From: an uncultured delta proteobacterium
GTDB lineage: Bacteria > Desulfobacterota > Desulfobulbia > Desulfobulbales > SURF-16
Reading direction: 5' to 3'
DNA length: 64,000 nucleotides
NCBI GenBank assembly: GCA_963729825.1
Contig: CAVSQR010000077.1
Coordinates: 19,132 to 83,131 of the forward strand
Of this stretch, positions 6,319-27,967 are shown in pieces. The position numbers and the translations under genes are program-made. The notes under the pieces were generated by a model. It saw nothing but the letters and a program-made list of their open reading frames with translations, did not search any database and was not told the origin of the DNA. The first letter of the stretch is position 1. Every line of letters starts with the position of its first letter.

Positions 6319-6755
6319 CGCCCGTTTCCTTTCTCTTTTAAAGTCGTTGCTCACTGCTTAAGCAGCCATAACAAAAGCGGATTCCCCGCCTGGGAAAATC
6401 CGGCCCTATCTTAGCAGTCAACTCAAAAAATAAAATTATTTTTTTATCACCCAGCCGTTTTATCATGATAAACCCACCCACGTTTACCATTCAATTGCAG
6501 CCCGGGCAAGGCAGAAATCCCTGCGCGGCTTGGTTCCGGTTGCTCCAGCCAATCACCCTGGCAAGGATCATATCAGCATTTGCCTGCTTGCCGCTGAAGC
6601 TTTGTGCCGTCTCATCATGGAAGACCACTCACCCCTTCGTCAACCGCGGATATTTCATTTTGCCCCATGAAACACGCTTTAACTCATGCATTAAAGGTTT
6701 ACATATGCTAAGATGTAACGATTAAATCCTTTGAAATAAATGGAGCTTGGAAAAT

Positions 6756-8136
6756 ATGCTGGAGCAAATCTTTGCCACAAATGGTCACAAAATTATCGAG
6801 ACCATGACCGATGGCCTGATGCTGGTGAACCCGTCCGGCAAAATCCTCTATGTGAATAATGCCCTGGAAGAGTTGCTGCGCTACCAGAAAAGCGAACTCA
6901 TCGGCAAAAGCTGTGACATTCTGGGCTGTGACATTTGTGCCAGAACAAAAAGAAGGGGGAGAGCCTGCGACCTGTTTACCAAGGGTGAGGAAAAAAATCA
7001 GCGATGCACTTTCCGCCGCAAGGATGGAACGGTGGTAACCGTTCTGAAGAACGCTACGACCTTACGGGACGAAAAAGATACTTTGGTGGCTGCAGTTGAA
7101 AATCTGACCGACCTGAGTTCCGTTGAAGAAAAAGACAGGGTTATCACTCACCTGAAGCGTCACATCGCATACGAAGAAGGGTTTCAGGGACTTATCGGCA
7201 ATTCAGAGGCCATGCGTAAAATGTTTGATCTTACCAGGAGCGCTGCCCATTCCGATGCGCCGGTTATCATTTATGGAGAGAGCGGCACCGGCAAGAAGCT
7301 TGTCGCCTCCGCCTTACACCGGCTCGGCACCCGACGGGAAGGCCCATTTGTCCAAGTCAACTGTGCCTCCTTGAGTGAGGAACAACTGGAAAGGGAACTG
7401 TTCGGCCAGGCCAGGGGCGGCTTTACCGGTGCTGATTCATCGGTGGTCAGCCGGCTTGAAGCGGCAAACGGCGGCGATCTCTTTCTTGATGAAATCGGCG
7501 ATATGCCCCCGGCCCTGCAGCTAAAACTGCTTCGCGTCCTGCAGGAGCGGGAAATTGAAAGTGCCGCCGATCACCGTCCCGTCCCTTTACTGCTCCGCAT
7601 TATTTCCTCAACCAGTAAAAATCTGCCAAAACTCATTAAGGAGGGTGCGCTTCAGGGAGGATCTTTTCTATCGAATCGGTGTCATTCCCATCAATCTCCC
7701 CCCGCTCAGTGAAAGGAAAGACGACATCCCTGCCCTGGTTGAATCCTTTATCAACAGCACCAGCATTAAAACCGGCAAAAAAATCAATCGCATCAGCAAA
7801 CAGGCCCTGGAGATTTTTCATCAATACAGCTGGCCGGGCAACGTGAGAGAACTGATCAATGCCATAGACTATGCCTTTGTCCTCTGCCCCGGCGATGAAA
7901 TTCTAGCGGAACATCTCCCCCCCCATTTTGCCGTTCAGCTCAAAATACTGAATATCCCCGTGGTCAAATCCCAATTAAACAAAACCGAAGATGAACGGCA
8001 ACGCCTGGTCAAGGCATTAAAGGCAACGAACGGCAACAAATCCGAGGCTGCCCGCCTGATGGGCATCAGCAGGGTAACACTTTGGAAATATTTAAAAAAA
8101 TACCAGATAGAGGTCAACCGGAAGATTCAGGAATAA
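6756..8136 (+). pseudogene. PAS-domain sigma-54-dependent transcriptional activator (NtrC/AtoC-like EBP), one frameshift near 7650
   Basis: PAS region, then an AAA+ sigma-54 interaction domain (GESGTGK Walker A, GGFTGA loop, DLFLDEIGD Walker B), then a Fis-type HTH (NKSEAARLMGISRVTLWKYLKK). ORFs 6747..7712 and 7555..8136 join as ..KLIKEGA|FREDLFYRIGVIPINLPPL.. with an extra base at about 7650. Confidence 0.85.
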
Positions 8137-8326: not shown

Positions 8327-9734
8327 ATGGCTCCACAAGAAGCCTCATTACGCCCCCGCGAGGAATGCGGAATCTGCGGTATTTACGGTCACCCTGATTC
8401 CGCCAAATTGACATATTTCGGTCTCTACGCCCTCCAGCACCGGGGCCAGGAAAGCGCCGGCATCGTCACCACGGACGGCAAACAGGTTTTTGAACATAAA
8501 GGCATGGGGCTCGTCTCCGAGGTTTTCAGTGAAAAGGACCTGCAGCGCCTGCAGGGCGCCCTGTCGGTGGGGCATGTCCGTTACTCCACCACCGGCGCTT
8601 CCAACATTCTCAACGCCCAGCCGTTTACCGCCCGGCACCGCGATCAGTTTTTCGCCGTGGCCCATAACGGCAATCTGGTCAATATCCGTCAGTTACGTGA
8701 CGAACTGGAAACCAGGGGATCCATCTTTCAGTCCACCATGGACAGCGAAGTGGTTGTCCATCTCCTGGCCTCGTTCAGCCATCTCCCCTTTAACGAGGCC
8801 ATTACCGAGACCTTCAAGCAGATCAAGGGCGCCTACTCAATATCTGATTTTAACCCATAACAAGCTGGTGGCCATTCGCGACCCCAACGGTTTCAGACCC
8901 CTCTGCCTCGGCAAAATCTCAAACGGCGCCTATGTCGTTGCCTCGGAAACCTGCGCGCTTGACCTGATTGAAGCAAATTATATCCGCGATATAGAGCCGG
9001 GCGAGGTATTGATCATTGATCATAACGGGCTTGAGTCCTTCTTCCCCCAGGAAAAGCGGGCCACGAGCTTCTGCATTTTTGAGCATGTCTACTTTGCCAG
9101 ACCGGACAGCGACATCTTCGGCCTGAATGTTTACTCGTGCCGCAAGAGAATGGGCCAGATACTCGCCAGGGAGACCAATATTGACGCCGACTTTGTCATG
9201 CCCTTTCCCGATTCGGGCAACTATGCGGCCATCGGCTTTTCCCAGGCCTCCGGCATTCCGCTGGAAATGGGGGTTATCCGCAACCACTATGTGGGCCGCA
9301 CCTTTATCCAGCCGACCCAATCCATGCGGGACTTTTCCGTGCGGGTGAAATTAAACCCGGTGCGCTCCTTTCTCAAGGGAAAACGTGTTGTTATTATCGA
9401 AGATTCCATTATTCGCGGCACCACCGGCCGCAGCCGTATCCGCTCCCTGCGCGCCTCCGGGGTCAAAGAGGTGCACATGCTGGTCAGTTGCCCGCCGACC
9501 CGTTACCCCTGCTATTACGGCATTGATTTCCCGTCCCAGGACCAGCTGATTGCAGCCAAAAAATCCATCGCTGAAATCCGCGATTTTCTGCATCTTGACA
9601 CCCTGCACTATCTCAGCCTGGAAGGCCTGGTGGAGGCAACCGGCATGCCTGCCGAATCATTCTGCCTGGCCTGTTTCAACAACACCTATCCGGTGGAGCC
9701 GGACACCGGCTTCCACAAACTGTCCCTCGGTTGA
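8327..9734 (+). pseudogene. purF: amidophosphoribosyltransferase PurF, one frameshift near 8843
   Basis: N-terminal Ntn glutaminase (EECGICGIYG, HVRYSTTG, AHNGNL). C-terminal PRTase (VVIIEDSIIRGTT) and Cys cluster (CPPTRYPCYYGID). ORFs 8327..8860 and 8490..9734 join as ..KGAYSI|LILTHNKLVAIRDPNGFRPL.. Confidence 0.9.
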
Positions 9735-9758
9735 CGCTGTGGAACATGGGCACTGATC

Positions 9759-10739
9759 ATGTCATCACTTAGCCTGGCAAAAGAAGTTTTACAGATTGAA
9801 GCGGAAGGCATCCAGGCCTTAATCGAGCAGCTTGACGCCAACTTCGACAAAGCCGTTTCCCTGATCATGAACTGCCCCAGCCGCCTTATCATCACCGGCA
9901 TCGGCAAATCAGGCATCATCGGCCAGAAAATTTCCGCCACCTTAAACAGCACCGGCACGGCATCTTTTTTTCTCCATCCGGTGGAGGCAATGCATGGCGA
10001 CCTGGGCATTGTCGATCACAACGATGTGGTGCTTGCCCTTTCTTACAGCGGGGAAACAACGGAACTCAACATGCTGCTGCCGGTCCTCAAAAAGCGGGGG
10101 GTGAAAACCATCGCCCTGACCGGCAACAAAAATTCCACCCTGGCCTCCTTTGCCGACGTTGTGCTGTCTGCCAAAGTCCCGCGGGAGGCCTGCCCGCTGG
10201 GCCTTGCCCCCACGGCAAGCACCACTGCCGCCCTGGCCCTCGGCGATGCCCTGGCGGTGGTGCTTATTGAAAAAAAGAAATTCGCGGCCAGCGATTTCCG
10301 CAAAAATCACCCCGGCGGCAGCCTGGGGGAACGCCTGAAAACCAAGGTGCAGGAGGTGATGATCACCGGCCCCCTGCTCCCTCTTACCGCACCGGATTCC
10401 TCTTTGCGTGCAGCAATCAATGTCTTGAACGAGAAGAACCTGGGGGCTGTTATCATCGCTGACGACAAGAGCAAACTCTGCGGCATTATCACCGACGGCG
10501 ACCTGCGCCGCCTGCTCAGCCTGACCAAGCCCCTGGATATTGACCGCCTGCAGGTCAAAGATATCATGACGCCCTCGCCCAAGACCATCCAAGAGGATCT
10601 CCTGGCCGCAGACGCTTTGAGTATCATGCAGCGCCATGAGGTGACCATCCTGCCCGTCCTGAACAAAGCCGGCCTGCTGGCCGGGATGCTGCACCTCCAT
10701 GATCTGCTTGGCAAAGGGGAATTCCGCCTGTTGGTTTAA
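9759..10739 (+). CDS. kdsD: KpsF/GutQ family arabinose-5-phosphate isomerase (SIS + tandem CBS domains)
   Basis: 326 aa. SIS motif ITGIGKSGIIGQKISATLNSTG and ALSYSGET, with two C-terminal CBS repeats. Confidence 0.85.
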   Translation: MSSLSLAKEVLQIEAEGIQALIEQLDANFDKAVSLIMNCPSRLIITGIGKSGIIGQKISATLNSTGTASFFLHPVEAMHGDLGIVDHNDVVLALSYSGETTELNMLLPVLKKRGVKTIALTGNKNSTLASFADVVLSAKVPREACPLGLAPTASTTAALALGDALAVVLIEKKKFAASDFRKNHPGGSLGERLKTKVQEVMITGPLLPLTAPDSSLRAAINVLNEKNLGAVIIADDKSKLCGIITDGDLRRLLSLTKPLDIDRLQVKDIMTPSPKTIQEDLLAADALSIMQRHEVTILPVLNKAGLLAGMLHLHDLLGKGEFRLLV

Positions 10740-10953
10740 CTGCCGCTGAGCCGCCAGGCCTTACCCGGTAGAAATACCTATAATACCAACAGGTTATTTC
10801 TTTTTTGCTGTTCAAGTCATATTGACAAACCTGCTGCTTTTGGTTAGCATCCCATTTGTACTTCTTTCATGCTCGGCACGCATTTTAAGAGCTTGTTCGG
10901 AAATAAGCTCTCACTCAAATGCCTTTATTTCTACCTTAAACACGAGGTTAATA

Positions 10954-11514
10954 ATGGGAATCACCAGTAAAGAAATCAATCCAGCCTTCAGCGCTGAGGT
11001 GACCAATATCCCAGGTGGTGAATATCTGAATCGATGTTTTTCCTGTGGGGCCTGCAGCGGCATCTGCCCCGTGAGTCAGGCAATCCCTGATTTTGATCCG
11101 CGGAAAATCATCCACATGGTCCGCATGGGATTAAAGGACCGGCTGCTCCACTCTGATCTGCTCTGGTTCTGCTCACGCTGCCGGAGCTGCATCTTCGTCT
11201 GCCCCCAGGATGTCCGTTTTGCCGATATCATGTCCGCCCTGCGGGACCTGGCCATGCAGGAGGGTATTATCACCGAGGAAAACCTGCGCGAAAAAGGCAA
11301 GGCCGCCTGGGTGGAACGGGATCTCTGCGTATCCTGTCTGACCTGCGTCCGGGTCTGCCCCTGGGAGATCCCGAAGATTGACCGGCAGGGGGTTGCCGAT
11401 ATCAATGCCAGAACCTGCAGGGGTTGCGGGATCTGCGTTGCAGAATGTCCGGCTCAGGCCATCCGGCTCAATGAGTCCGAAGACGAGAAACTTATCGCCG
11501 CCTGCGGCGTTTAA
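10954..11514 (+). CDS. HdrC-like / 4Fe-4S dicluster ferredoxin fusion protein
   Basis: Four CxxCxxCxxxCP motifs (CFSCGACSGICP, CSRCRSCIFVCP, CVSCLTCVRVCP, CRGCGICVAECP). ATG 10954 has a GAGG RBS. The 44-aa N-terminal extension in the ORF track looks non-coding. Confidence 0.7.
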   Translation: MGITSKEINPAFSAEVTNIPGGEYLNRCFSCGACSGICPVSQAIPDFDPRKIIHMVRMGLKDRLLHSDLLWFCSRCRSCIFVCPQDVRFADIMSALRDLAMQEGIITEENLREKGKAAWVERDLCVSCLTCVRVCPWEIPKIDRQGVADINARTCRGCGICVAECPAQAIRLNESEDEKLIAACGV

Positions 11515-11532
11515 AGCCGAGTGGAGAAACGC

Positions 11533-11955
11533 ATGACTTTTACTCCTGATATCCAAGCATTTTGTTGCCACTACACTTCCCAGCAGACCATTGCCGAGGG
11601 AAGAGAAGGCCTGAAACAAGACGGCCTGCCGGGAAACGTCACCTTCCATCGCGTGGTCTGCACCGGCAAACTGCAGGTGAGCACCCTGCTCAAGGCCTTT
11701 GAAGAGGGCGCTGACGGGGTCTATGTGGTCGGCTGCCCGGCAGACCAATGCCATAACGTCAAAGGCAGCCAGCGGGCGGCAAAGCGGGTGGATGCCATCA
11801 AAAAGGCCCTGGCCGAACTTGCCGTTGAACCGGAAAGAATAGAAATGTTTCACCTGGAAAGAGGCTTCCACCCTGAATTTGTTGAAGCCGCCCAGCTCAT
11901 GAATAAGAGGATCACCGATTTAGGCCCGAGTCCGTTTAAGGGGGAAGCAAAATGA
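11533..11955 (+). CDS. mvhD: MvhD/FlpD-type hydrogenase iron-sulfur subunit-like protein
   Basis: AFCCHYTS...VCTGK...GADGVYVVGCPADQCHN is the MvhD family signature. GGAG RBS 6 nt upstream of ATG 11533. Confidence 0.75.
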   Translation: MTFTPDIQAFCCHYTSQQTIAEGREGLKQDGLPGNVTFHRVVCTGKLQVSTLLKAFEEGADGVYVVGCPADQCHNVKGSQRAAKRVDAIKKALAELAVEPERIEMFHLERGFHPEFVEAAQLMNKRITDLGPSPFKGEAK

Positions 11956-12620
11956 TCATCGCCGACAGAAAACCTGTGGATGAAATACTGGGCATGGTAA
12001 GCGATGCCAAAAAAATTCTGGTCCTCGGCTGCCGGGGATGCGTCACGGTCTGCTCCGCCGGCGGCGAGCGCGAGGTGGAGATCCTGGCCTCGCTCATCAG
12101 ACTGGGCATGCTGAAACAGGGCAAGAAGATTGAAACCATTGAAGGATCCCTGGTCAGACAGTGCGACAAGGAATATATCGATGCCATTGATGAGTGGGAA
12201 GGCCAATACGATGCCATTGTTTCCATGGCCTGCGGCGTGGGCGTCAATTTCATCGCCAATCTCCGCCCCACCACCAAGGTCTATCCCGCGGTGAACACCA
12301 GCTTCTTCGGCGGCTCCGCCGAGCAGGGGGTGTGGAAGGAACAGTGCGCCGGCTGCGGCAACTGTGTGCTGCATCTGACCGGCGGACTCTGCCCGGTGGC
12401 CCGCTGCGCCAAAAGCCTGATGAACGGCCCCTGCGGCGGCTCGGTCAATGGCCGCTGCGAGATCCACCCGGATGTGGAATGCATCTGGCAGTCAATCCAT
12501 GACCGTCTCGGCAGAATCGGTAACGCCGAAGCCATGAACGTCATTGCCCCGATCCGGGACTGGAGCACCGCCGGCCATGGCGGTCCCCGCAAAACCATGC
12601 GGGATGATCTGACCATCTGA
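11952..12620 (+). CDS. metV: methylenetetrahydrofolate reductase C-terminal domain protein (MetV-like, Cys-rich)
   Basis: 222 aa. Contains LGCRGCVTVC and CAGCGNCVLHLTGGLCPVARCAKSLMNGPCGG motifs typical of MetV. The start overlaps the mvhD stop (ATGA). Confidence 0.7.
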   Translation: MIIADRKPVDEILGMVSDAKKILVLGCRGCVTVCSAGGEREVEILASLIRLGMLKQGKKIETIEGSLVRQCDKEYIDAIDEWEGQYDAIVSMACGVGVNFIANLRPTTKVYPAVNTSFFGGSAEQGVWKEQCAGCGNCVLHLTGGLCPVARCAKSLMNGPCGGSVNGRCEIHPDVECIWQSIHDRLGRIGNAEAMNVIAPIRDWSTAGHGGPRKTMRDDLTI

Positions 12621-16429: not shown

Positions 16430-16545
16430 CACAAACCTCCATAAAGTCTCAACCAAACGTAAAGGTCGCGGGCATGGCCCGCTCGTTTACCCCCCAACTT
16501 TCATAGGTGCATAACGGCTGGAATTCGTAAATTATATGCCTGAGG

Positions 16546-16626
16546 TCGTCATTCCGGCATGTTTTCAGCCGGAATCCAGAAAAACCAGTGGATTCCGGGT
16601 CGCGCTTTACTTGCCGGCAATGACGT
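16546..16626. repeat. MITE/REP-like palindromic element
   Basis: Terminal inverted repeats CGTCATTCCGGCA / TGCCGGCAATGACG. Internal perfect 10-bp hairpin CCGGAATCCA-N10-TGGATTCCGG. ORF 16536..16844 is just its translation. Confidence 0.6.
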
Positions 16627-16999
16627 CCTTACTGCAAAATTGTGTAATCCTGCCTGGTTACTTAAAATTTAGAGTGTTACTGTACAAAAAAGTTCTCCTT
16701 CTTCACATGAAAATCGGCAGCAGCAACCCGGCAAGCCGAATGCTGAGGGAAAATGGAAAAAAGGAGAGAAGATTGATTTTTTCTTGCGGATTCAATTTTA
16801 TCGTTTTAACAACAAATGGAGGAAATAAGTTTCTTTGGAAATAGATTGACTCTGCGAAAAATAAATTAGTGGCCTTTTTCGACTTTTGGCGATTGAAGTT
16901 AACTCCTATTGTAAGAGAACCTAATGACTTACTTGCGATGCAAGTTGCAGCGTGATATGAATAAGAAACGAAAATAAACAACGTTTTGAGGATTAAAAC

Positions 17000-17995
17000 A
17001 TGGCATCTGGCAAGTTGTTAAGGCAGTTGATTAAAACTGGAGCAGAAGGCAATCTAGGGGCCTTTCGGGAAACCAGTGAGCAAGTTATTCGTGACGAACG
17101 GGCGAAAAAACACCACATGCTCGCCAATGATCTGGAGAAAATTCTTTATGGCCGTTCAAGCGGCAACTCATTGGTACATTCTGCATTAAAGGATCAACTG
17201 CCCAAAGACCGGGAGCGTAATATGCCCCTAGTTCAGGTTCGTAATCCGACGCGCAGACTGGAAGACGTAGTCCTTTCAGACGACAATAGTTCGTTGCTGG
17301 ATGAACTGCTTGAAGAACACCATCGCGTTGAAGTGTTGAAAAGTTATGGCCTACGCTCTGCTGATCGCCTATTATTTTGTGGACCGCCTGGTTGTGGCAA
17401 GACTGTAACCGCTGAAGTCATAGCCAGTGAACTGGGGCTCCCTCTTGTCGTCGTGCGACTGGACAGTGTTGTTTCATCATATTTAGGCGAAACTGCCTCT
17501 AACCTGCGTCAAGTTTTTGATTTTTGCACGTCGTATCCCACCGTCACATTATTTGATGAATTTGATGCTATTGCCAAAGAGCGCTCAGACGCTTCTGATC
17601 ATGGAGAACTCAAGCGAGTGGTTAACGCTTTTCTCCAGATGCTTGATGATTATGAGGGTAAAAGTCTGCTGATAGGAGCCACTAATCATGAGGGTATCCT
17701 TGACACAGCTGTCTGGCGTAGGTTCGATGAGGTTTTGGTGTTTGAAATGCCCAATCTGGAACAACTTCGTCGTCTTCTTACCATCAAATTACGGGGACTC
17801 CGGCGGGAATTTAATCCTGAAGATAATCGCATTGCTAGCTTATTCAAAGGAATGAGCCACGCAGATGTAGAACGCACCTTGCGCCGTGCAGCCAAAGATA
17901 TGATTCTTGCTGGCCAGGAATTTTTAACTGAACGGCATCTTATGTCTGCTTTGCAGCGTGAAGATGCAAGGAGAGCCCGGTTTAAAAGGAATTAA
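17000..17995 (+). CDS. AAA+ ATPase (classical AAA clade), IetA-like partner of the downstream S8 protease
   Basis: 331 aa. Walker A GPPGCGKT, Walker B TLFDEFDA, sensor-1 GATNH, Arg-finger region VWRRFDEV. Stop is 2 nt from the next ATG. Lies in a low-GC islet. Confidence 0.85.
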   Translation: MASGKLLRQLIKTGAEGNLGAFRETSEQVIRDERAKKHHMLANDLEKILYGRSSGNSLVHSALKDQLPKDRERNMPLVQVRNPTRRLEDVVLSDDNSSLLDELLEEHHRVEVLKSYGLRSADRLLFCGPPGCGKTVTAEVIASELGLPLVVVRLDSVVSSYLGETASNLRQVFDFCTSYPTVTLFDEFDAIAKERSDASDHGELKRVVNAFLQMLDDYEGKSLLIGATNHEGILDTAVWRRFDEVLVFEMPNLEQLRRLLTIKLRGLRREFNPEDNRIASLFKGMSHADVERTLRRAAKDMILAGQEFLTERHLMSALQREDARRARFKRN

Positions 17996-17997
17996 TC

Positions 17998-20379
17998 ATG
18001 GATGATACATTTCCCCATCTCCCTTTGCAACGGGAGGAGCCTGTTAATGATAAGCGCCCATCTGGCTTTCCCCGTTCTAATCCGCCTGATAATCCCGCCG
18101 CCCATGGTGCGGCTCTTCGTCAGTGCCTCGCCAGCGCTAAAGAAGAGCCTGCTGCTGAAGGTGGTTTTGATGAACGACATCTGTTTCGCTTTACAGTTGA
18201 CAAAGGTTTTTCGCCTGATGAACTGCCCAAAATCGTCAGCCCTGAATTTCGAGACCAAATCGAGGTTGTAAGCCAGGAAGGTGAGGAGATTATAGTCGCC
18301 TTTATTAGCGATGCGGCCCTAGAGTCATTTGAGGCATTACTTACAACCCTGGCCGGAGGTGGTGTCCCCACCAATAAGCAAGTTTTTTTCGCCCTGCAGG
18401 GAATCGACAGTTGGAAGCCAGATGAGCGCATGGGCTGGGCTCTGAAACGGGAGGGATTTCCGGATAAAGAAACTTTTTTGCTTGATGTTGAACTATGGCC
18501 CCTTGAAGACAATCTCAAAGAACGCCGAGCCTTATGGACCAGCTTCGAGAGATGGCTTGACCAACATGCCATTTCCTCCATTGATAGTGTCAAGCAACCC
18601 GGTATCTCTCTCTATCGGGTTCGCTGTAACCATGATCAGGCTGAACGTTTATTGCACCACCGGGATGTACGAGCGGTTGATCTCCCCCCTCGTTATGGTA
18701 TTGGTCTGAGTTTACGTTATATCGATATCCAAAAACTGGGTGATATACCTCACCCACCGGCCAACGCGCCCGGCCTCACCGTGCTCGACAGTGGACTCAC
18801 CACCGGTCATCCCCTTATTGGACCTGCAGTTGGAGAAGCAGCAAGCTTTTTGCCGGGAGAAGACCCAGCCGACGAGAATGGCCACGGCACCCTTGTTGGC
18901 GGTCTAGCCCTCTATGGTGATGTGGAAGCCTGTATTAAGAGTGGAAAATTTATGCCGGAACTTCGACTGTTTAGTGGCCGAATTTTGGACGATAATGCAG
19001 AGAACCCCACCGGCTTTGTCGAAAATCATATTGCCGAGGCAGTCCGCTATTTTCACCATGAATATGGCTGTCGTATCTTCAATGTCTCCTTCGGCGACCT
19101 CAATAAGCCATATTTCGGGGGACATGTCCGGGAATTGGCATTTACTCTTGATACGCTTTCCCGTGAATTAAAGGTTTTGTTTGTTGTTTCTGCCGGTAAT
19201 GTCTTGGGCTCCGCCCTTAATGGTCTGGAATGGCGGGAGCGTTATCCGTTCTACCTGAATGAGACGGATTGGTCCATCCTTGATCCGGCTCCAGCTCTGA
19301 ATGTCCTTACCGTTGGGAGTCTGGCTCGCCATGATCTGACCTCCAATAGTCAACGCTTTAGTGGCGACCCGGCAGAGGTGCCAATCGCCGCCATTAACCA
19401 ACCTTCACCCTTTACCCGCCATGGCCCATCAGTGGGTGGAGCAATTAAACCTGAGTTGGTTGCCTATGGCGGTAATTGGGCTATCAACACCCGCGCTGGC
19501 GCTAATGTTCTGGTAGCCAACAGTGGCCTAGGCGAGTTATCCACAAATTGGCAGTCCACGACTGACGGGAGACTGTTTGCCGATGAAAGCGGTACCAGTT
19601 TTGCTGCACCCCATGTGGCATATCTTGCCGCCATGCTCCAGCATGAAGTGCCCCATGCTAGCCACCACCTGATACGAGCATTGTTGGTGCTTCATGCCAG
19701 AGTACCGGATGAAGCGCGGCAACTTTTCGAACAGGAAAAAGATTCTCTCCGCAATATATGCGGCTATGGGAAGGTTGACACCATTGGTCTTTTCCGCTCA
19801 CTAGAAAACGAAGTGACCATGATTGCCGAAAGTACAATTGCCAACAAGAAACACCACTTTTACGAAGTGCCCGTTCCAGAGGACTTTGTTAGCAAGGGCC
19901 GCAGGGTTCGCGAGATTTCTGTGGCCCTTGCCTATACCCCTTATGTCCGCTCCACTCGCATTGATTACCGGGCAAGCCGAATCAGTTTTAAGCTGGTGGC
20001 GGCAAAAGACCTGGCAGAAGTGACAACGATTTTTAACCAGGCAACGGACAAGGAGACCTACGACGCCATTAAGGAAATCGGTACGGAACTGGGAGCAAAT
20101 AACCGAAACGTCACAAGTGACCAGCGCAACCGGGGAACTGTGCAGGGTGGCCGCTGGCGGTTTATACAATTTAATGCCAATGCCAAACTAAAGCAAAAGC
20201 GTTTATTTGTTGTAGTGACTCGCAACGATTTTGCCTGGGCCGAACCGCATAGCTCTACAGAGGAGGATTATGCTCTTGTAGTCACCTTTCGTGATCGGGA
20301 AAATGAACAAGCGCGGCTTTATACCCAGATCCGCAACCGCCTCCAGGCACGGGTAAGGGGAAGGGCCATGAGTTTCTGA
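17998..20379 (+). CDS. S8 family (subtilisin-like) serine peptidase with unassigned N- and C-terminal domains, IetS-like
   Basis: 793 aa. Catalytic motifs VLDSG (Asp), NGHGT (His), SAGN (oxyanion Asn) and GTSFAAPHV (Ser). No signal peptide or TM segment evident. Confidence 0.85.
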   Translation: MDDTFPHLPLQREEPVNDKRPSGFPRSNPPDNPAAHGAALRQCLASAKEEPAAEGGFDERHLFRFTVDKGFSPDELPKIVSPEFRDQIEVVSQEGEEIIVAFISDAALESFEALLTTLAGGGVPTNKQVFFALQGIDSWKPDERMGWALKREGFPDKETFLLDVELWPLEDNLKERRALWTSFERWLDQHAISSIDSVKQPGISLYRVRCNHDQAERLLHHRDVRAVDLPPRYGIGLSLRYIDIQKLGDIPHPPANAPGLTVLDSGLTTGHPLIGPAVGEAASFLPGEDPADENGHGTLVGGLALYGDVEACIKSGKFMPELRLFSGRILDDNAENPTGFVENHIAEAVRYFHHEYGCRIFNVSFGDLNKPYFGGHVRELAFTLDTLSRELKVLFVVSAGNVLGSALNGLEWRERYPFYLNETDWSILDPAPALNVLTVGSLARHDLTSNSQRFSGDPAEVPIAAINQPSPFTRHGPSVGGAIKPELVAYGGNWAINTRAGANVLVANSGLGELSTNWQSTTDGRLFADESGTSFAAPHVAYLAAMLQHEVPHASHHLIRALLVLHARVPDEARQLFEQEKDSLRNICGYGKVDTIGLFRSLENEVTMIAESTIANKKHHFYEVPVPEDFVSKGRRVREISVALAYTPYVRSTRIDYRASRISFKLVAAKDLAEVTTIFNQATDKETYDAIKEIGTELGANNRNVTSDQRNRGTVQGGRWRFIQFNANAKLKQKRLFVVVTRNDFAWAEPHSSTEEDYALVVTFRDRENEQARLYTQIRNRLQARVRGRAMSF

Positions 20380-20401
20380 GAAAAATAGCCAGGCCCACTT
20401 T

Positions 20402-20707
20402 ATGCGTGACTCAAAAGTCAAACTATCTCCCTACTACCTGTACATAAAAGAAAAGTTTGCTATTGATGAGACAATTCTGGTTTCCACACGGGTAACAGCA
20501 GAAGTGGCTGATCGCTTAAATGCCTTGGCGAAATCAACCCACCGTTCAAAGTCATTTTTAGCCGCACAGGCCATTGAGGAATTCCTTAATGTACAGGAAT
20601 GGCAGGTGGAGGCGATAAAGAAAGGAATAGCTGCAGCCAAAAAGGGCGAGGTAAAAAGTCACGAGCACGCCCTCGCCATCTTGGACACCTGGGGCAAGAG
20701 TACATAA
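20402..20707 (+). CDS. ribbon-helix-helix (CopG/ParD-like) antitoxin-type protein
   Basis: 101 aa. ILVSTRVTAEVADRLNALAKSTHRSKSFLAAQAIEEFL is a typical RHH strand plus two helices. Confidence 0.6.
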   Translation: MRDSKVKLSPYYLYIKEKFAIDETILVSTRVTAEVADRLNALAKSTHRSKSFLAAQAIEEFLNVQEWQVEAIKKGIAAAKKGEVKSHEHALAILDTWGKST

Positions 20708-20844
20708 ATGAGAGTGGACGGTTCCTGCACTTCAGGATCTGGTTGCTGCCAGTGTCGATACCCTCTCACGAATGCAGCAGCAGCCGGACCCGTTTGACCA
20801 TACTGTTGAAAACCTGCAGGGGCTTAAACGGGATCGGTTTTAAT
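20708..20844 (+). pseudogene. possible remnant of a ParE/RelE-type toxin gene
   Basis: ATG 20708 abuts the antitoxin stop. After a frame slip at codon 3 the reading ..WTVPALQDLVAASVDTLS resembles the W-T-x-x-A-x-x-DL N-terminus of ParE/RelE toxins. The frame then stops after about 45 codons, and the segment overlaps the 3' end of the minus-strand DUF362 ORF. Confidence 0.25.
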
Positions 20845-26443: not shown

Positions 26444-26950
26444 ATGAGAGGTTCCCTCCTGCACAGATCAGCACTGAGAACCGGACGGTTGCTCCGGGCA
26501 ATGCTGGTAACCCTGGCGGTTTCCGCCATACCTGCCTGGGCGGCGGACGATCAGGCGGCAAAATCGGTAACCGACCCGGTGCTGGATCTTGCCCAGACAA
26601 CCTCGCTGGCCCTTACCATCATGAAGGTAATGGGCGCCCTGATACTGACGGTGGGGATCATGCTGCTGCTTGCGGTCTGGTTCAGAAAACTCGGCCTGAG
26701 CCGGGCAGGTCTGCAGCAGGGAAAGCTTATCAGCATCATCGATACCAAGATGATCGCCCCGAAAAAGTATGTCGCCGTGGTGCAGGTGGCGGATGAAACC
26801 CTGGCCCTTGGCATTACCGACCAGCAGATCACCATGCTGACCCGGCTGGAGACGAGCGCAACCCAAGTCCGGCAAAGCCCGGAAGACAGACCTCAGCAGA
26901 CATCTTTCGCCACCCTGCTCGGCAAGGTGGTCAAAAGGAGCGGCCAATGA
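26444..26950 (+). CDS. fliO: flagellar biosynthetic protein FliO
   Basis: Position between fliN and fliP. Single TM segment (LILTVGIMLLLAVWF) then ...VVQVADETLALGITDQQITMLTRL, typical of FliO. Confidence 0.7.
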   Translation: MRGSLLHRSALRTGRLLRAMLVTLAVSAIPAWAADDQAAKSVTDPVLDLAQTTSLALTIMKVMGALILTVGIMLLLAVWFRKLGLSRAGLQQGKLISIIDTKMIAPKKYVAVVQVADETLALGITDQQITMLTRLETSATQVRQSPEDRPQQTSFATLLGKVVKRSGQ

Positions 26951-27695
26951 AAAAATTTCTGCTGCTGCTCACTCCTTTTCTTTTGCTTCTGGCAACGGCG
27001 GACTGCCAGGCGGTCACGCTGCCGACGGTGCAGATCGGCATGGCGGATACCAACGACCCCAAACAGGTTTCCGTGCTCATCGAGATCCTGCTCATTTTCA
27101 CCGTTCTCTCCATTGCGCCGGCCATTATCTTAATGACCACCTGCTTTACCAGGCTTGTCGTTGCCTTCTCCTTTCTGAGCAATGCCCTGGGCACGCAGCA
27201 GATGCCGCCTGCCCAGCTGCTCATAGGGCTTGCCCTGTTTCTGACCATTTTCATCATGACCCCGGTCCTGAAAGAAATGAACGAGACCGCGGTCAAGCCT
27301 TACATGAATCAGCAGATTGATCTGCAGCAGGCCTTTACCCAAGGCATTAAACCCCTGCGCGCCTTCATGTTCAAACAGACCAGGGAAAAGGATCTCGGCC
27401 TTTTTCTCGGCATCGCCAAGATGCAGAAACCGGCCAACAAGGACGAGGTTCCCACCACCGATCCTGGTGCCCGCCTTTGTCATCAGCGAACTGAAAACCT
27501 CCTTCCAGATCGGCTTTATTCTCTTTCTGCCCTTTCTGGTCATCGACATGGTGGTGTGCCAGCGTCCTGCTCTCCATGGGCATGATGATGCTGCCCCCGG
27601 TCATGGTTTCTCTGCCCTTTAAACTGCTGCTCTTTGTGCTGGTTGACGGGTGGTATCTCATCGTCGGCTCACTGGTTAAAAGCTTTGGAGTATAG
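26947..27695 (+). pseudogene. fliP: flagellar type III secretion protein FliP, two frameshifts (about 27460 and 27557)
   Basis: Three frames join to the conserved FliP sequence ..EVPTT|[32 protein letters not shown]|[45 protein letters not shown]. The ORF track shows 26947..27585 and 27317..27622. The last frame ends at TAG 27693-27695. Confidence 0.9.
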
Positions 27696-27697
27696 AT

Positions 27698-27967
27698 ATG
27701 GATCCCCTGGAAGCCATCACCTTAGGTCAGAATGCCATCACCATATCCCTGCTGCTCTCCGCCCCGCTGCTGCTGATCGGCATGGTGGTCGGCCTGCTCA
27801 TCGCCATTTTTCAGGCCACGACCCAGATTCAGGAAATGACCCTGACCTTTGTGCCCAAGATCGTTGCGGTCATGCTTGCCCTGATCTTTTTTTCCTCCTG
27901 GATGCTGATCAAAATGACCGATTACACCCAGGATCTCTTTCTCAGCATCCCGAATCTCATCAGATGA
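27698..27967 (+). CDS. fliQ: flagellar biosynthetic protein FliQ
   Basis: 89 aa with two TM segments. Contains the conserved ..IAIFQATTQIQEMTLTFVPK.. motif. Confidence 0.9.
   Translation: MDPLEAITLGQNAITISLLLSAPLLLIGMVVGLLIAIFQATTQIQEMTLTFVPKIVAVMLALIFFSSWMLIKMTDYTQDLFLSIPNLIR

Follow-up and report, generated by a model that had tools for sequence, protein, structure and literature searches.

An intact Y4kK-type IetAS ATPase-subtilase pair, probably a mobile toxin-antitoxin or abortive-defence module, in a Desulfobulbaceae chromosome

IetAS, the pairing of an AAA ATPase with an S8 peptidase, was reportedly put forward as an anti-phage system by Gao et al. in 2020. On pTiC58 the pair was first described as a plasmid-stability toxin-antitoxin system, with a protease as toxin and an ATPase as antitoxin (Yamamoto et al. 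2009, as cited in PMC8562856 and PMC13069673). The Mycoplasma module MMCAP2_0132/0133 (JCVI-syn2.0 132/133) encodes proteins of 353 and 757 aa, in the order and size range of the pair studied here, and neutralisation assays, together with a lethal deletion of the ATPase alone, identify its ATPase as antitoxin and its protease as toxin; it comes from another phylum and has no reported phage role (PMC8562856). A variant with an SNF2 helicase, ietHAS (Liu-DS4), has the IetA and IetS core in common with our pair, and in E. coli ietHAS protease activity is needed for defence and an ietA mutant was uncloneable (PMC13069673). In Bacillus cereus, IetAS is triggered by the phage protein SPbeta YosG, and its defence is abortive (bioRxiv 10.1101/2022.08.27.505566). 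As late as 2026, the literature still listed the mechanism of this widespread system as unknown (PMC13069673). The original prediction for the present locus had called the trigger unknown as well, which is only partly true because YosG is a known trigger of the B. cereus system (bioRxiv 10.1101/2022.08.27.505566).

The window (the whole 64,000-nucleotide stretch of DNA analysed) holds one such pair, preceded by a non-coding leader:

16457..16999, plus strand: non-coding leader, 543 bp, AT-rich, presumed promoter region of ietA
17000..17995, plus strand: ietA, classical-clade AAA+ ATPase of 331 aa, predicted antitoxin/regulator (PADLOC IetA, PF00004)
17998..20379, plus strand: ietS, cytoplasmic multi-domain S8 subtilase of 793 aa, predicted toxin/effector (PADLOC IetS, PF00082)

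We read the locus as a self-contained, horizontally mobile IetAS toxin-antitoxin / abortive-defence module, with a probability of about two in three. The ORF list and translations bear out two intact, same-strand reading frames: ietA runs from ATG to TAA, and ietS follows after a spacer of 2 nt (...GGAATTAA TC ATGG...), with a Shine-Dalgarno-like AAGGAA run inside the 3' end of ietA. Like IetAS as defined in PADLOC, the pair consists of two co-directional, translationally coupled genes, AAA+ ATPase then S8 subtilase, both encoding cytoplasmic proteins.

Assignment to IetAS had been proposed from architecture, and profile searches upheld it over the full length of both proteins. IetA matched PADLOC model PDLC02196 at E=1.1e-100 (residues 4-325 aligned to positions 4-325 of the 374-position profile) and three more IetA models at E<=1e-56. 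IetS matched PDLC02198 at E=3.3e-261 and 866.7 bits (residues 5-790 aligned to positions 4-787 of the 795-position profile), as well as seven more IetS models, with its first ~100 residues falling outside these other sub-models; on a Pseudomonadaceae plasmid protein, the PADLOC IetS model reached 1333 bits. The best NCBIfam matches lay below their cut-offs, both for IetA (NF042959 IteA_antiphage, E=7.6e-77, 259 bits against 510) and for IetS (NF042956 IteS_antiphage, E=1.2e-33, 116 bits against 900). These cut-offs were also missed by the PADLOC-called IetAS pairs of E. coli pMNCRE44_5 and Pseudomonadaceae pT75-VIM; the IteA/IteS equivalog is therefore a narrower branch, and failing it separates sub-branches without excluding a pair from the IetAS family. 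Adjacency, the catalytic triad with its oxyanion Asn, and the Walker A, Walker B, sensor-1 and Arg-finger region are present alongside the profile matches. Judged by its sequence, the pair is almost certainly an intact, Y4kK-type IetAS module; the IetS proteins of this subfamily fall into 566 clusters at 50% identity (E<=1e-30). It is an ordinary addition to a large known family and brings no new system. Identity of its IetS to the Rhizobium/Agrobacterium pTi/pRi type is no more than about 24-25%, and to the Klebsiella/E. coli plasmid type 27%, in the catalytic region only; with kinship so distant, any phenotype of the window pair is an extrapolation. Searches of literature and structure libraries turned up no experiment, phenotype or solved structure for the Y4kK-type branch.

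In IetA, all the motifs named in the original prediction were located in the translation: Walker A GPPGCGKT (aa 128-135), Walker B TLFDEFDA (aa 183-190), sensor-1 GATNH (aa 226-230) and the Arg-finger region VWRRFDEV (aa 238-245). To these we add pore-loop-1 SYLGE (aa 160-164). The PF00004 match (E=4e-31) spans positions 1-130 of the 131-position profile, and an alignment of 11 full-length and one partial homologue showed Walker A and B, a pore loop SS[YF]LGET, sensor-1 and WRRFDE to be invariant. The nearest sequence relatives in the PDB are p97/Cdc48 D2, NSF and AFG2, and the best unfoldase relatives in NCBIfam are PAN and FtsH; sequence comparison shows that IetA homologues keep a Y/F-L-G pore loop as well as an SRH-like ATNH...WRRFDE region. 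By analogy with the described systems, we predict that this classical-clade AAA+ ATPase acts as antitoxin or regulator.

IetS carries the complete subtilase active site that had been claimed for it, with VLDSG (D264), NGHGT (H296), SAGN (N401) and GTSFAAPHV (S534); none of the four residues varies among 110 sequences with identities as low as 27%, and PF00082 matches residues 260-591 (E=7e-39). Neither protein showed a signal peptide or transmembrane segment by Kyte-Doolittle hydropathy (19-residue maxima of 1.66 for IetA and 1.53 for IetS, both N-termini hydrophilic), as expected from the original prediction. The prediction had also recognised no domain on either side of the catalytic region. 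This stands for local Pfam, which gave no match to the N-terminal ~255 or C-terminal ~200 residues even at E<=10, but not for the newer Pfam models PF27160 Y4kK_N and PF27210 Y4kK_2nd, which are precomputed on all close IetS homologues. A 24-sequence profile of the N-terminal region found only a chance match among PDB sequences (E=0.72). The two flanking regions are:

17998..18762, plus strand: IetS N-terminal region (AF2 secondary structure and pLDDT, conservation, Foldseek)
19810..20379, plus strand: IetS C-terminal beta-sandwich, jelly-roll-like, with terminal helix (AF2, Foldseek)

A first AF2 run with 36 close homologues was poor (pLDDT 62.5); the model built from 110 diverse sequences reached a pLDDT of 90.5 and predicts an S8 core that is preceded by two alpha/beta domains and followed by a jelly roll. 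Along the chain, a conserved tail with the pattern HLxLxR..RR (aa 1-16) is followed by a disordered R/P/G-rich linker (aa 17-28), a modelled helix (aa 33-48), alpha/beta domain 1 (aa 61-119) and a ferredoxin-like domain 2 (aa 127-228). The near-invariant VDLPP motif (aa 227-231) closes the N-terminal region ~33 residues ahead of the catalytic Asp, at the site expected for a propeptide junction. At the other end, the model places the jelly-roll-like domain at aa ~605-765 and the terminal helix at aa 774-792. With a four-part architecture that can be modelled so confidently, the branch is a clean subject for structural and biochemical study.

The best structural matches of IetS were Tk-SP (3afg), KP-43 (1wmd), SubHal (5fax), furin and PCSK9. 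They all combine an S8 core with a C-terminal beta-sandwich domain, as IetS does, and in Foldseek the catalytic and C-terminal domains of IetS matched KP-43 and SubHal with TMt of 0.72-0.73; the C-terminal domain also gave ~200-column matches to viral jelly-roll capsid proteins. Identity between IetS and the multi-domain subtilases and convertases is just 12-16%, and these enzymes are secreted and carry cleavable I9 propeptides, whereas IetS is cytoplasmic, with two N-terminal domains and a conserved tail. Inhibitor_I9 had no Pfam match in IetS even at E<=10. Pro-forms (3afg, 3whi, 2zwo, EpiP, furin) do align across the N-terminal domain, but with rmsd of 13-23 A. Since TM normalised to the query was at most 0.41, the PDB holds no full-length structural relative of IetS.

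These comparisons bear on whether the two proteins might instead work like a proteasome, with an IetA hexamer unfolding selected (phage) proteins and feeding them to IetS, so that defence would be direct and the toxicity of IetS alone an artefact of unregulated activity. The nearness of IetA to the protease-partner unfoldases PAN, FtsH and Cdc48, its aromatic pore loop and the strict coupling of ietA and ietS all favour such a pair. However, the active site of a subtilase lies in an open cleft and is not enclosed in a gated chamber, and the AF2 model suggests that IetS is a monomeric multi-domain protein like KP-43 and Tk-SP. The literature further describes abortive infection, with the ATPase acting as antitoxin (bioRxiv 10.1101/2022.08.27.505566; PMC13069673), and we consider a proteasome-like division of labour quite unlikely.

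For the toxin-antitoxin / abortive-defence reading we draw on other IetAS systems, by analogy with which IetS would be toxic, IetA would neutralise it, defence would be abortive and protease-dependent, and a phage protein may be the trigger. That IetA neutralises IetS toxicity is known solely from the systems of pTiC58, Mycoplasma and E. coli (ietHAS) (PMC8562856, PMC13069673); protease-dependent phage protection has been shown in other IetAS sub-branches (PMC13069673; bioRxiv 10.1101/2022.08.27.505566). In the present locus, ietA and ietS would be co-translated from one mRNA, and IetA would assemble into a classical AAA+ hexamer whose aromatic pore loop SYLGE grips and remodels protein with ATP. 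In uninfected cells IetA would continuously keep IetS inactive, its likeliest handle being the IetS N-terminal tail and disordered linker, the two alpha/beta domains, or both; the second of these domains appears to sit at the usual place of a subtilase propeptide. IetS would be freed once IetA is blocked or titrated by a phage product, or once the supply of IetA or of ATP fails, and would then cut cytoplasmic host (possibly phage) proteins, so that growth stops ahead of progeny release. Restraint, trigger and cleavage in this form are a tentative proposal, possible rather than probable, and the suggested handle and propeptide-like domain come from one AF2 model and from Foldseek alignments to pro-forms with rmsd of 21-23 A. 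A bolder version, which we think unlikely to be right in full, would make Y4kK-type IetS a permanently tethered zymogen, with a propeptide-like domain 2, a proline-rich and probably uncleavable VDLPP junction, and the N-terminal tail and linker as the grip for IetA. IetA would then be a mechanical antitoxin that spends ATP to keep the N-terminal module engaged or IetS partly unfolded, and a phage protein jamming the ATPase would fire the protease. If true, an unfoldase would be serving as antitoxin, a toxin-antitoxin logic of a new kind, and IetAS would have its first mechanistic model, in a branch that is large and very well conserved (52-77% identity across several phyla).

Pairing is strict in the homologous loci: ietA lies directly upstream of ietS in 19/19 other loci, with a gap of 2-6 nt in 10 of the 11 measured, the window excluded. 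No conserved third gene was found in the window or in these 19 loci, and an ietHAS-like third component was rejected, as no neighbour is common to the loci. A scan of genome contigs yielded four relatives. In nine annotated loci and three viral contigs, the flanks are never conserved and often contain defence, toxin-antitoxin or mobile-element genes. The nearest homologue (77% identity) sits inside a type I BREX operon; another pair follows hsdMSR (type I R-M) and adjoins an integrase, with IS21 and ParDE close by; a third is on an ICE with HipAB, two lie amid group II introns, resolvase and IS elements, and one is accompanied in its islet by HigB-like, BrnT and Mrr genes. Further pairs adjoin Fic or RelA_SpoT genes, three are on IMG/VR viral contigs, and homologues occur on plasmids too. 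Temperate phages carry IetA-like genes. The neighbourhoods are thus variable and rich in defence and mobile elements, as anticipated from the original prediction, and are not conserved housekeeping operons. At the nucleotide level, the 4.4-kb locus had no match in PLSDB plasmids or complete E. coli genomes.

In the window, the pair lies in a 4.3-kb islet of low GC between an M48 peptidase gene and a DUF362 gene:

16457..20765, no strand: horizontally acquired islet with ietA, ietS, relB-like gene and parE stub (GC, GC3, comparison with L017/L018)
20402..20707, plus strand: relB-like ribbon-helix-helix antitoxin gene, orphan, 101 aa (NF048017)
20708..20765, plus strand: parE-family toxin 5' stub, truncated and frameshifted, joined to the 3' end of the DUF362 gene

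The islet has a GC of 0.486 against 0.56-0.57 in its flanks, and a GC3 of 0.41-0.49 against 0.68-0.78 in neighbouring genes. Homology to two Desulfurivibrio MAG loci (L017 and L018) begins exactly at 20768; left of the equivalent point these loci have other genes and no IetAS, and these MAGs are ~87% identical in nucleotides over the block adjoining the islet. The pair was thus acquired horizontally into a variable spot of the Desulfobulbaceae chromosome. Direct or inverted repeats bounding the islet were limited to chance-level short matches. Composition and distribution weigh against an intracellular protease and chaperone for quality control or regulated proteolysis in the host: the flanking genes are indeed housekeeping genes (M48 peptidase, FabL, Maf, DUF362, aconitase, the fli operon), but the foreign composition, the related MAGs without the pair at the same site and the sporadic occurrence in different phyla (52-77% identity) amid unrelated genes make such a role extremely improbable. 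An exact look-up of the DUF362 protein returned no match.

The islet is solitary and lies outside any defence island. Elsewhere in the window, low-GC stretches encode ordinary regulators, NusA and the like, with no further defence genes. This isolation, the decaying relB/parE pair in the same islet, the homologues on an ICE and on plasmids, and the first discovery of IetAS as a plasmid-stability system (as cited in PMC8562856 and PMC13069673) would also suit a pure addiction or stabilisation module, a selfish cassette as on pTiC58 that gives this host no phage protection. Yet a chromosomal islet hardly needs stabilisation, a BREX operon and the position after type I R-M are typical sites of defence genes, and other IetAS subfamilies protect against phage in the literature. 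We regard addiction alone as rather unlikely; the addiction and defence roles are compatible and not mutually exclusive.

A silent or decaying remnant, with expression or function lost, is very improbable. The neighbouring relB/parE genes have decayed, and frameshifts interrupt other genes of the contig, such as fliP. Both ORFs of the pair, however, are full length with all catalytic residues intact, and their 3.36 kb are identical in an independent assembly (L011), while the relB-like gene next to them shows 12 differences. No plus-strand match to the sigma-70 consensus was detected upstream of ietA, in a scan that covers this organism's promoters poorly; the terminator scan likewise had no plus-strand site there, and neither scan exceeded the number of sites in shuffled sequence. 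The leader contains a palindromic, hairpin-forming element at ~16541-16631, which was rejected as a repeated MITE because the window has no second copy, and a 102-aa ORF (16536-16844) without a family match. Rfam returned only a chance-level hairpin for the locus (E=0.63).

For annotation, a defence/toxin-antitoxin label fits the locus, not that of a housekeeping protease, and the site marks a strain-variable spot beside the flagellar and aconitase block. Its relB/parE neighbour is a decayed remnant, an antitoxin gene beside a toxin that is no longer intact. The relB-like gene (GC3 0.49) matches NCBIfam NF048017 at E=8e-10 and 38.8 bits, below the cut-off of 50, and the parE stub retains ~15 codons, with a one-base indel relative to L011. 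Positions 20642-20754 are 91% identical to 1-113 of L018, where an intact 92-aa ParE_toxin gene comes next.

Both open reading frames lie on the + strand exactly where the original prediction had placed them (ORF list and translations), and a scan of the translations found every motif quoted for the AAA+ ATPase IetA and the S8 subtilase IetS:

17000-17995, + strand: ietA, ORF of 331 aa ending in TAA
17998-20379, + strand: ietS, ORF of 793 aa starting with ATG
IetA aa 128-135: Walker A
IetA aa 183-190: Walker B
IetA aa 226-230: sensor-1
IetA aa 239-244: WRRFDE
IetS D264, H296, N401 and S534: catalytic residues

Reading the sequence, two bases separate the TAA of ietA from the ATG of ietS. Translational coupling of the two genes fits the purine-rich AAGGAA that lies inside the 3' end of ietA, 8-9 nt upstream of that ATG. 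A further motif in IetA, pore-loop-1 (SYLGE, 160-164), was absent from the original list. The Pfam matches proposed as a check were both significant (PF00004 in IetA, E = 4e-31; PF00082 over IetS residues 260-591, E = 7e-39). As had been claimed for signal peptides and TM segments, neither N-terminus is hydrophobic and no TM-grade segment was seen in IetA or IetS.

The assignment of the pair to IetAS was upheld by PADLOC profiles, which both proteins matched end to end (IetA to PDLC02196, E = 1.1e-100; IetS to PDLC02198, E = 3.3e-261, 867 bits). Their top NCBIfam matches were IteA_antiphage and IteS_antiphage, at scores that did not reach the equivalog cut-offs (259 vs. 510 bits for IteA, 116 vs. 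900 bits for IteS). This was also true for the pairs on the E. coli plasmid pMNCRE44_5 and the Pseudomonadaceae plasmid pT75-VIM, yet PADLOC assigns both to IetAS, with the pT75-VIM protein scoring 1333 bits against PDLC02198. The NCBIfam models thus cover a narrower branch, and the missed cut-offs are no argument against membership of the pair in the window. In tblastn comparisons, the window IetS shares 42% identity with the pT75-VIM protein, ~24-33% with rhizobial and agrobacterial plasmid proteins, and 27% with the Klebsiella/E. coli plasmid type, in the last case over the catalytic region only. Judged by sequence, the locus is a further example of the known IetAS system, in a large sub-branch; the original observation and its interpretation both stand, now with profile evidence behind them.

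A word-indexed search with IetS returned 1,605 clusters at 90% identity, with a top identity of 77%, and when 1.84 billion representatives were searched exhaustively with HMMER, 566 clusters (50% identity) reached E ≤ 1e-30. Among the matches listed, precomputed annotation places PF27210 and PF00082 in 120/120 proteins and PF27160 in 119/120, the exception being a truncated 645-aa entry; the newer Pfam domains PF27160 and PF27210 appear in the neighbourhood tables as Y4kK_N and Y4kK_2nd, respectively. Members among the matches listed come from lineages as remote as Desulfogranum, Nitrosomonas, Mariprofundus, Magnetococcus, Acidiferrobacteraceae, Kentrum and others at 56-70% identity, which points to horizontal spread of the sub-branch. 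Across 110 aligned sequences, the most divergent at 27% identity, the catalytic triad did not vary, nor did the oxyanion Asn and a small number of structural residues; R144, G146, D163, W167, D196, R207 and P230-P231 in the N-terminal part were nearly invariant.

The solved sequences nearest to IetA are the D2 rings of p97/Cdc48, NSF, NVL and AFG2 (E about 1e-45), and after IteA the nearest NCBIfam families are PAN, Cdc48 and FtsH. Aligning 11 full-length homologues and one partial copy showed little or no variation in Walker A and Walker B, the SS[YF]LGET pore loop, ATNH, WRRFDE and a sensor-2-like ADVER..RRA, which together are the signature of a classical AAA+ ring predicted to thread protein. 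The N-terminal ~100 residues are helical and conserved within the branch, and matched no known family.

For IetS, an initial AF2 run limited to close homologues gave a poor model, and a second run with 110 diverse sequences reached pLDDT 90.5 and pTM 0.78. In the second model, the protein is divided as follows:

IetS ~1-16: N-terminal tail (pLDDT 91 over residues 1-10, lower beyond)
IetS 17-28: disordered linker rich in Arg, Pro and Gly
IetS 33-48: helix
IetS 61-119: alpha/beta domain
IetS 127-228: ferredoxin-like beta-alpha-beta-beta-alpha-beta domain
IetS ~259-595: S8 core
IetS ~605-765: beta-sandwich, followed by a long terminal helix

The tail carries a conserved HLxLxR....RR motif and forms beta-bridges in the model; residues 1-31 (tail and linker) are encoded by window 17998-18090. 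The modelled N- and C-terminal domains fall in the flanks in which no domain had been recognised. Foldseek returned no full-length counterpart of IetS from the PDB (query-normalised TM ≤ 0.41). The top PDB matches were multi-domain subtilases: ProN-Tk-SP (3afg) aligned over 671 columns, KP-43 (1wmd) and SubHal (5fax) superposed on the core and C-domain (rmsd 5.3 Å), and several pro-forms and proprotein convertases also matched. Among predicted viral structures, the non-protease matches were jelly-roll capsid proteins over ~200 columns, which fits a jelly-roll fold for the modelled C-terminal domain. Alignments to pro-forms spanned 464-671 columns vs. ~350 for mature subtilisins (rmsd 13-23 Å) and, as computed without aligned ranges, would extend well past the catalytic core towards the second N-terminal domain. 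That domain may occupy the place of a subtilase propeptide, an assignment kept tentative by the large rmsd and the absence of any Inhibitor_I9 sequence signal from IetS. A near-invariant VDLPP (227-231) lies ~33 residues ahead of the catalytic Asp, where, we infer, a propeptide-mature junction would fall.

In 19/19 other loci ietA lies directly upstream of ietS, with a gap of 2-6 nt in 10/11 measured loci (window excluded); beyond this order, nothing was conserved in the 19 neighbourhoods. The original prediction had held homologues in conserved housekeeping operons to speak against it; instead the flanks vary, as in these comparison loci:

L005 (Desulfogranum marinum): hsdM-hsdS-SLFN-hsdR with integrase, IS21 and ParDE
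L006 (closest homologue, 77% identity; JGI 3300039233 contig, 9000-12379): within a type I BREX operon
L007: lone islet amid polysaccharide-synthesis genes
L008 and L009: group II introns, resolvase and IS elements
L010 (Nitrosomonas ureae): conjugative element encoding a relaxase, a coupling protein, ArdC and HipAB
L012: RelA_SpoT gene
L013: Fic gene
L014 (2900-15800): islet with HigB-like/HTH, AHJR-like nuclease, ResIII, BrnT and Mrr_cat genes

Contexts so variable and so rich in defence genes and mobile elements are typical of an accessory module that is autonomous and mobile. Three IMG/VR viral contigs hold the pair near a contig end, and temperate phages also carry IetA-like genes. The gene order in L006 is brxB, brxC, pglX, DUF4365, ietA, ietS, pglZ, an unknown gene and brxL, one defence system nested in another; the L014 islet breaks up clustered pseudopilin genes of type II secretion.

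In the window, the pair sits in a low-GC islet (16457-20765; GC 0.486 vs. 0.56-0.57 in the flanks), and GC3 is 0.41-0.49 in ietA, ietS and the next small gene vs. 0.68-0.78 in seven neighbouring genes. The flanks are ordinary chromosome, with SIS-CBS, Fe-S, MvhD-like, MetF-C, PilZ, Maf, FabL, DUF3124 and M48 peptidase genes upstream and DUF362, aconitase and fliLMNOPQR downstream; the window FliM has matches of at least 90% identity in MAGs of Desulfurivibrio and Desulfobulbaceae. The right-hand block recurs in three related MAG loci (L017, L018 and L019), with nucleotide identity of about 87%, L019 being a contig end that begins within the aconitase gene and is uninformative on the islet site. 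In L017 and L018 the DUF362-aconitase-fli block starts exactly at window position 20768, and left of DUF362 they have amidohydrolase, T2SSB-like and GspA-like genes and no IetAS. The islet is therefore strain-specific and sits at a synteny break. The variable region left of DUF362 holds a gene of the OLD/Gabija-like ATPase family (AAA_15/AAA_21) in L017 (1-743) and an intact relB/parE pair in L018 (1-337), and the site seems to be a chromosomal hotspot of accessory genes and defence genes. A housekeeping role for the pair is contradicted, because the composition is foreign, the locus strain-specific and the distribution sporadic. The AT-rich leader ahead of ietA contains a palindrome, imperfect and predicted to form a hairpin: cgtcattccggca ... 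ccggaatccag ... ggattccgg ... tgccggcaatgacg (16541-16631). It has no second copy within the window, and its only Rfam match was at chance level (E = 0.63).

Membership, intactness, pairing, mobility and foreign origin are shown by the present analysis. Phage defence by IetAS was reportedly described by Gao and colleagues in 2020. The pTiC58 pair was first described as a toxin-antitoxin system in which the protease is the toxin and the ATPase its antitoxin, according to the accounts of Yamamoto 2009 in PMC8562856 and PMC13069673. A Mycoplasma pair follows the same logic: deleting only the ATPase gene kills the cell, and neutralisation of the toxin has been demonstrated (PMC8562856). In B. cereus, IetAS acts by abortive infection and becomes toxic upon expression of SPbeta YosG (bioRxiv 10.1101/2022.08.27.505566). 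Toxin-antitoxin behaviour and abortive defence would carry over to the window pair from this literature on its relatives. IetA would then be an ATP-driven ring that restrains IetS through the N-terminal tail, the linker or the propeptide-like module; IetS would be freed by a phage product, or once IetA or ATP is lost, and would then cut cytoplasmic proteins and arrest the cell. The ring may also work in the opposite direction, with IetA delivering substrates to IetS, and the same biochemistry would also fit a role in selfish addiction alone. The literature searched yielded no mechanistic or structural IetAS paper, the libraries searched yielded no experiment or solved structure for the Y4kK-type sub-branch to which this IetS belongs, and sequence searches found no solved structure. 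The remaining value of the locus is in how IetAS works in general, for which this well-conserved, confidently modelled branch would be good material.

Downstream of ietS lies one further gene of the islet:

20402-20707: orphan gene encoding a ribbon-helix-helix antitoxin of RelB-like type (match to NF048017 under the cut-off, E = 8e-10)

The left end of L018 matches window 20642-20754 at 91% identity and is followed there by an intact gene for a 92-aa ParE-family toxin. Of parE, the window retains only ~15 codons, which are fused to the DUF362 gene at its 3' end (within 20402-20765). This junction implies a deletion of ~5.3 kb relative to L018, which in the window lineage would have removed the parE, GspA-like, T2SSB-like and amidohydrolase genes. 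A short independent contig with the same locus (L011; Logan ERR12035932) matches the window without a single difference over the 3.36 kb of ietA and ietS. All 12 differences (nine substitutions and two indels, +2 nt and -1 nt) lie in the relB-like gene and the parE stub, within 230 bp (window 20494-20720 vs. L011 3362-3590), and the 160 bp beyond this patch are again free of them. The effector pair thus seems conserved while its neighbour decays; the cluster could reflect real polymorphism, relaxed selection, a recombination patch or an assembly artefact.

Elsewhere in the window, fliP (26947-27700) carries two single-base insertions relative to its L017 orthologue, near 27460 and 27558, that split the gene across three frames and are either assembly indel errors or the mark of a pseudogene. 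A sigma-54 activator ORF (6747-7712) stops inside its ATPase domain and is overlapped by a second ORF (7555-8136), which suggests another frameshift.
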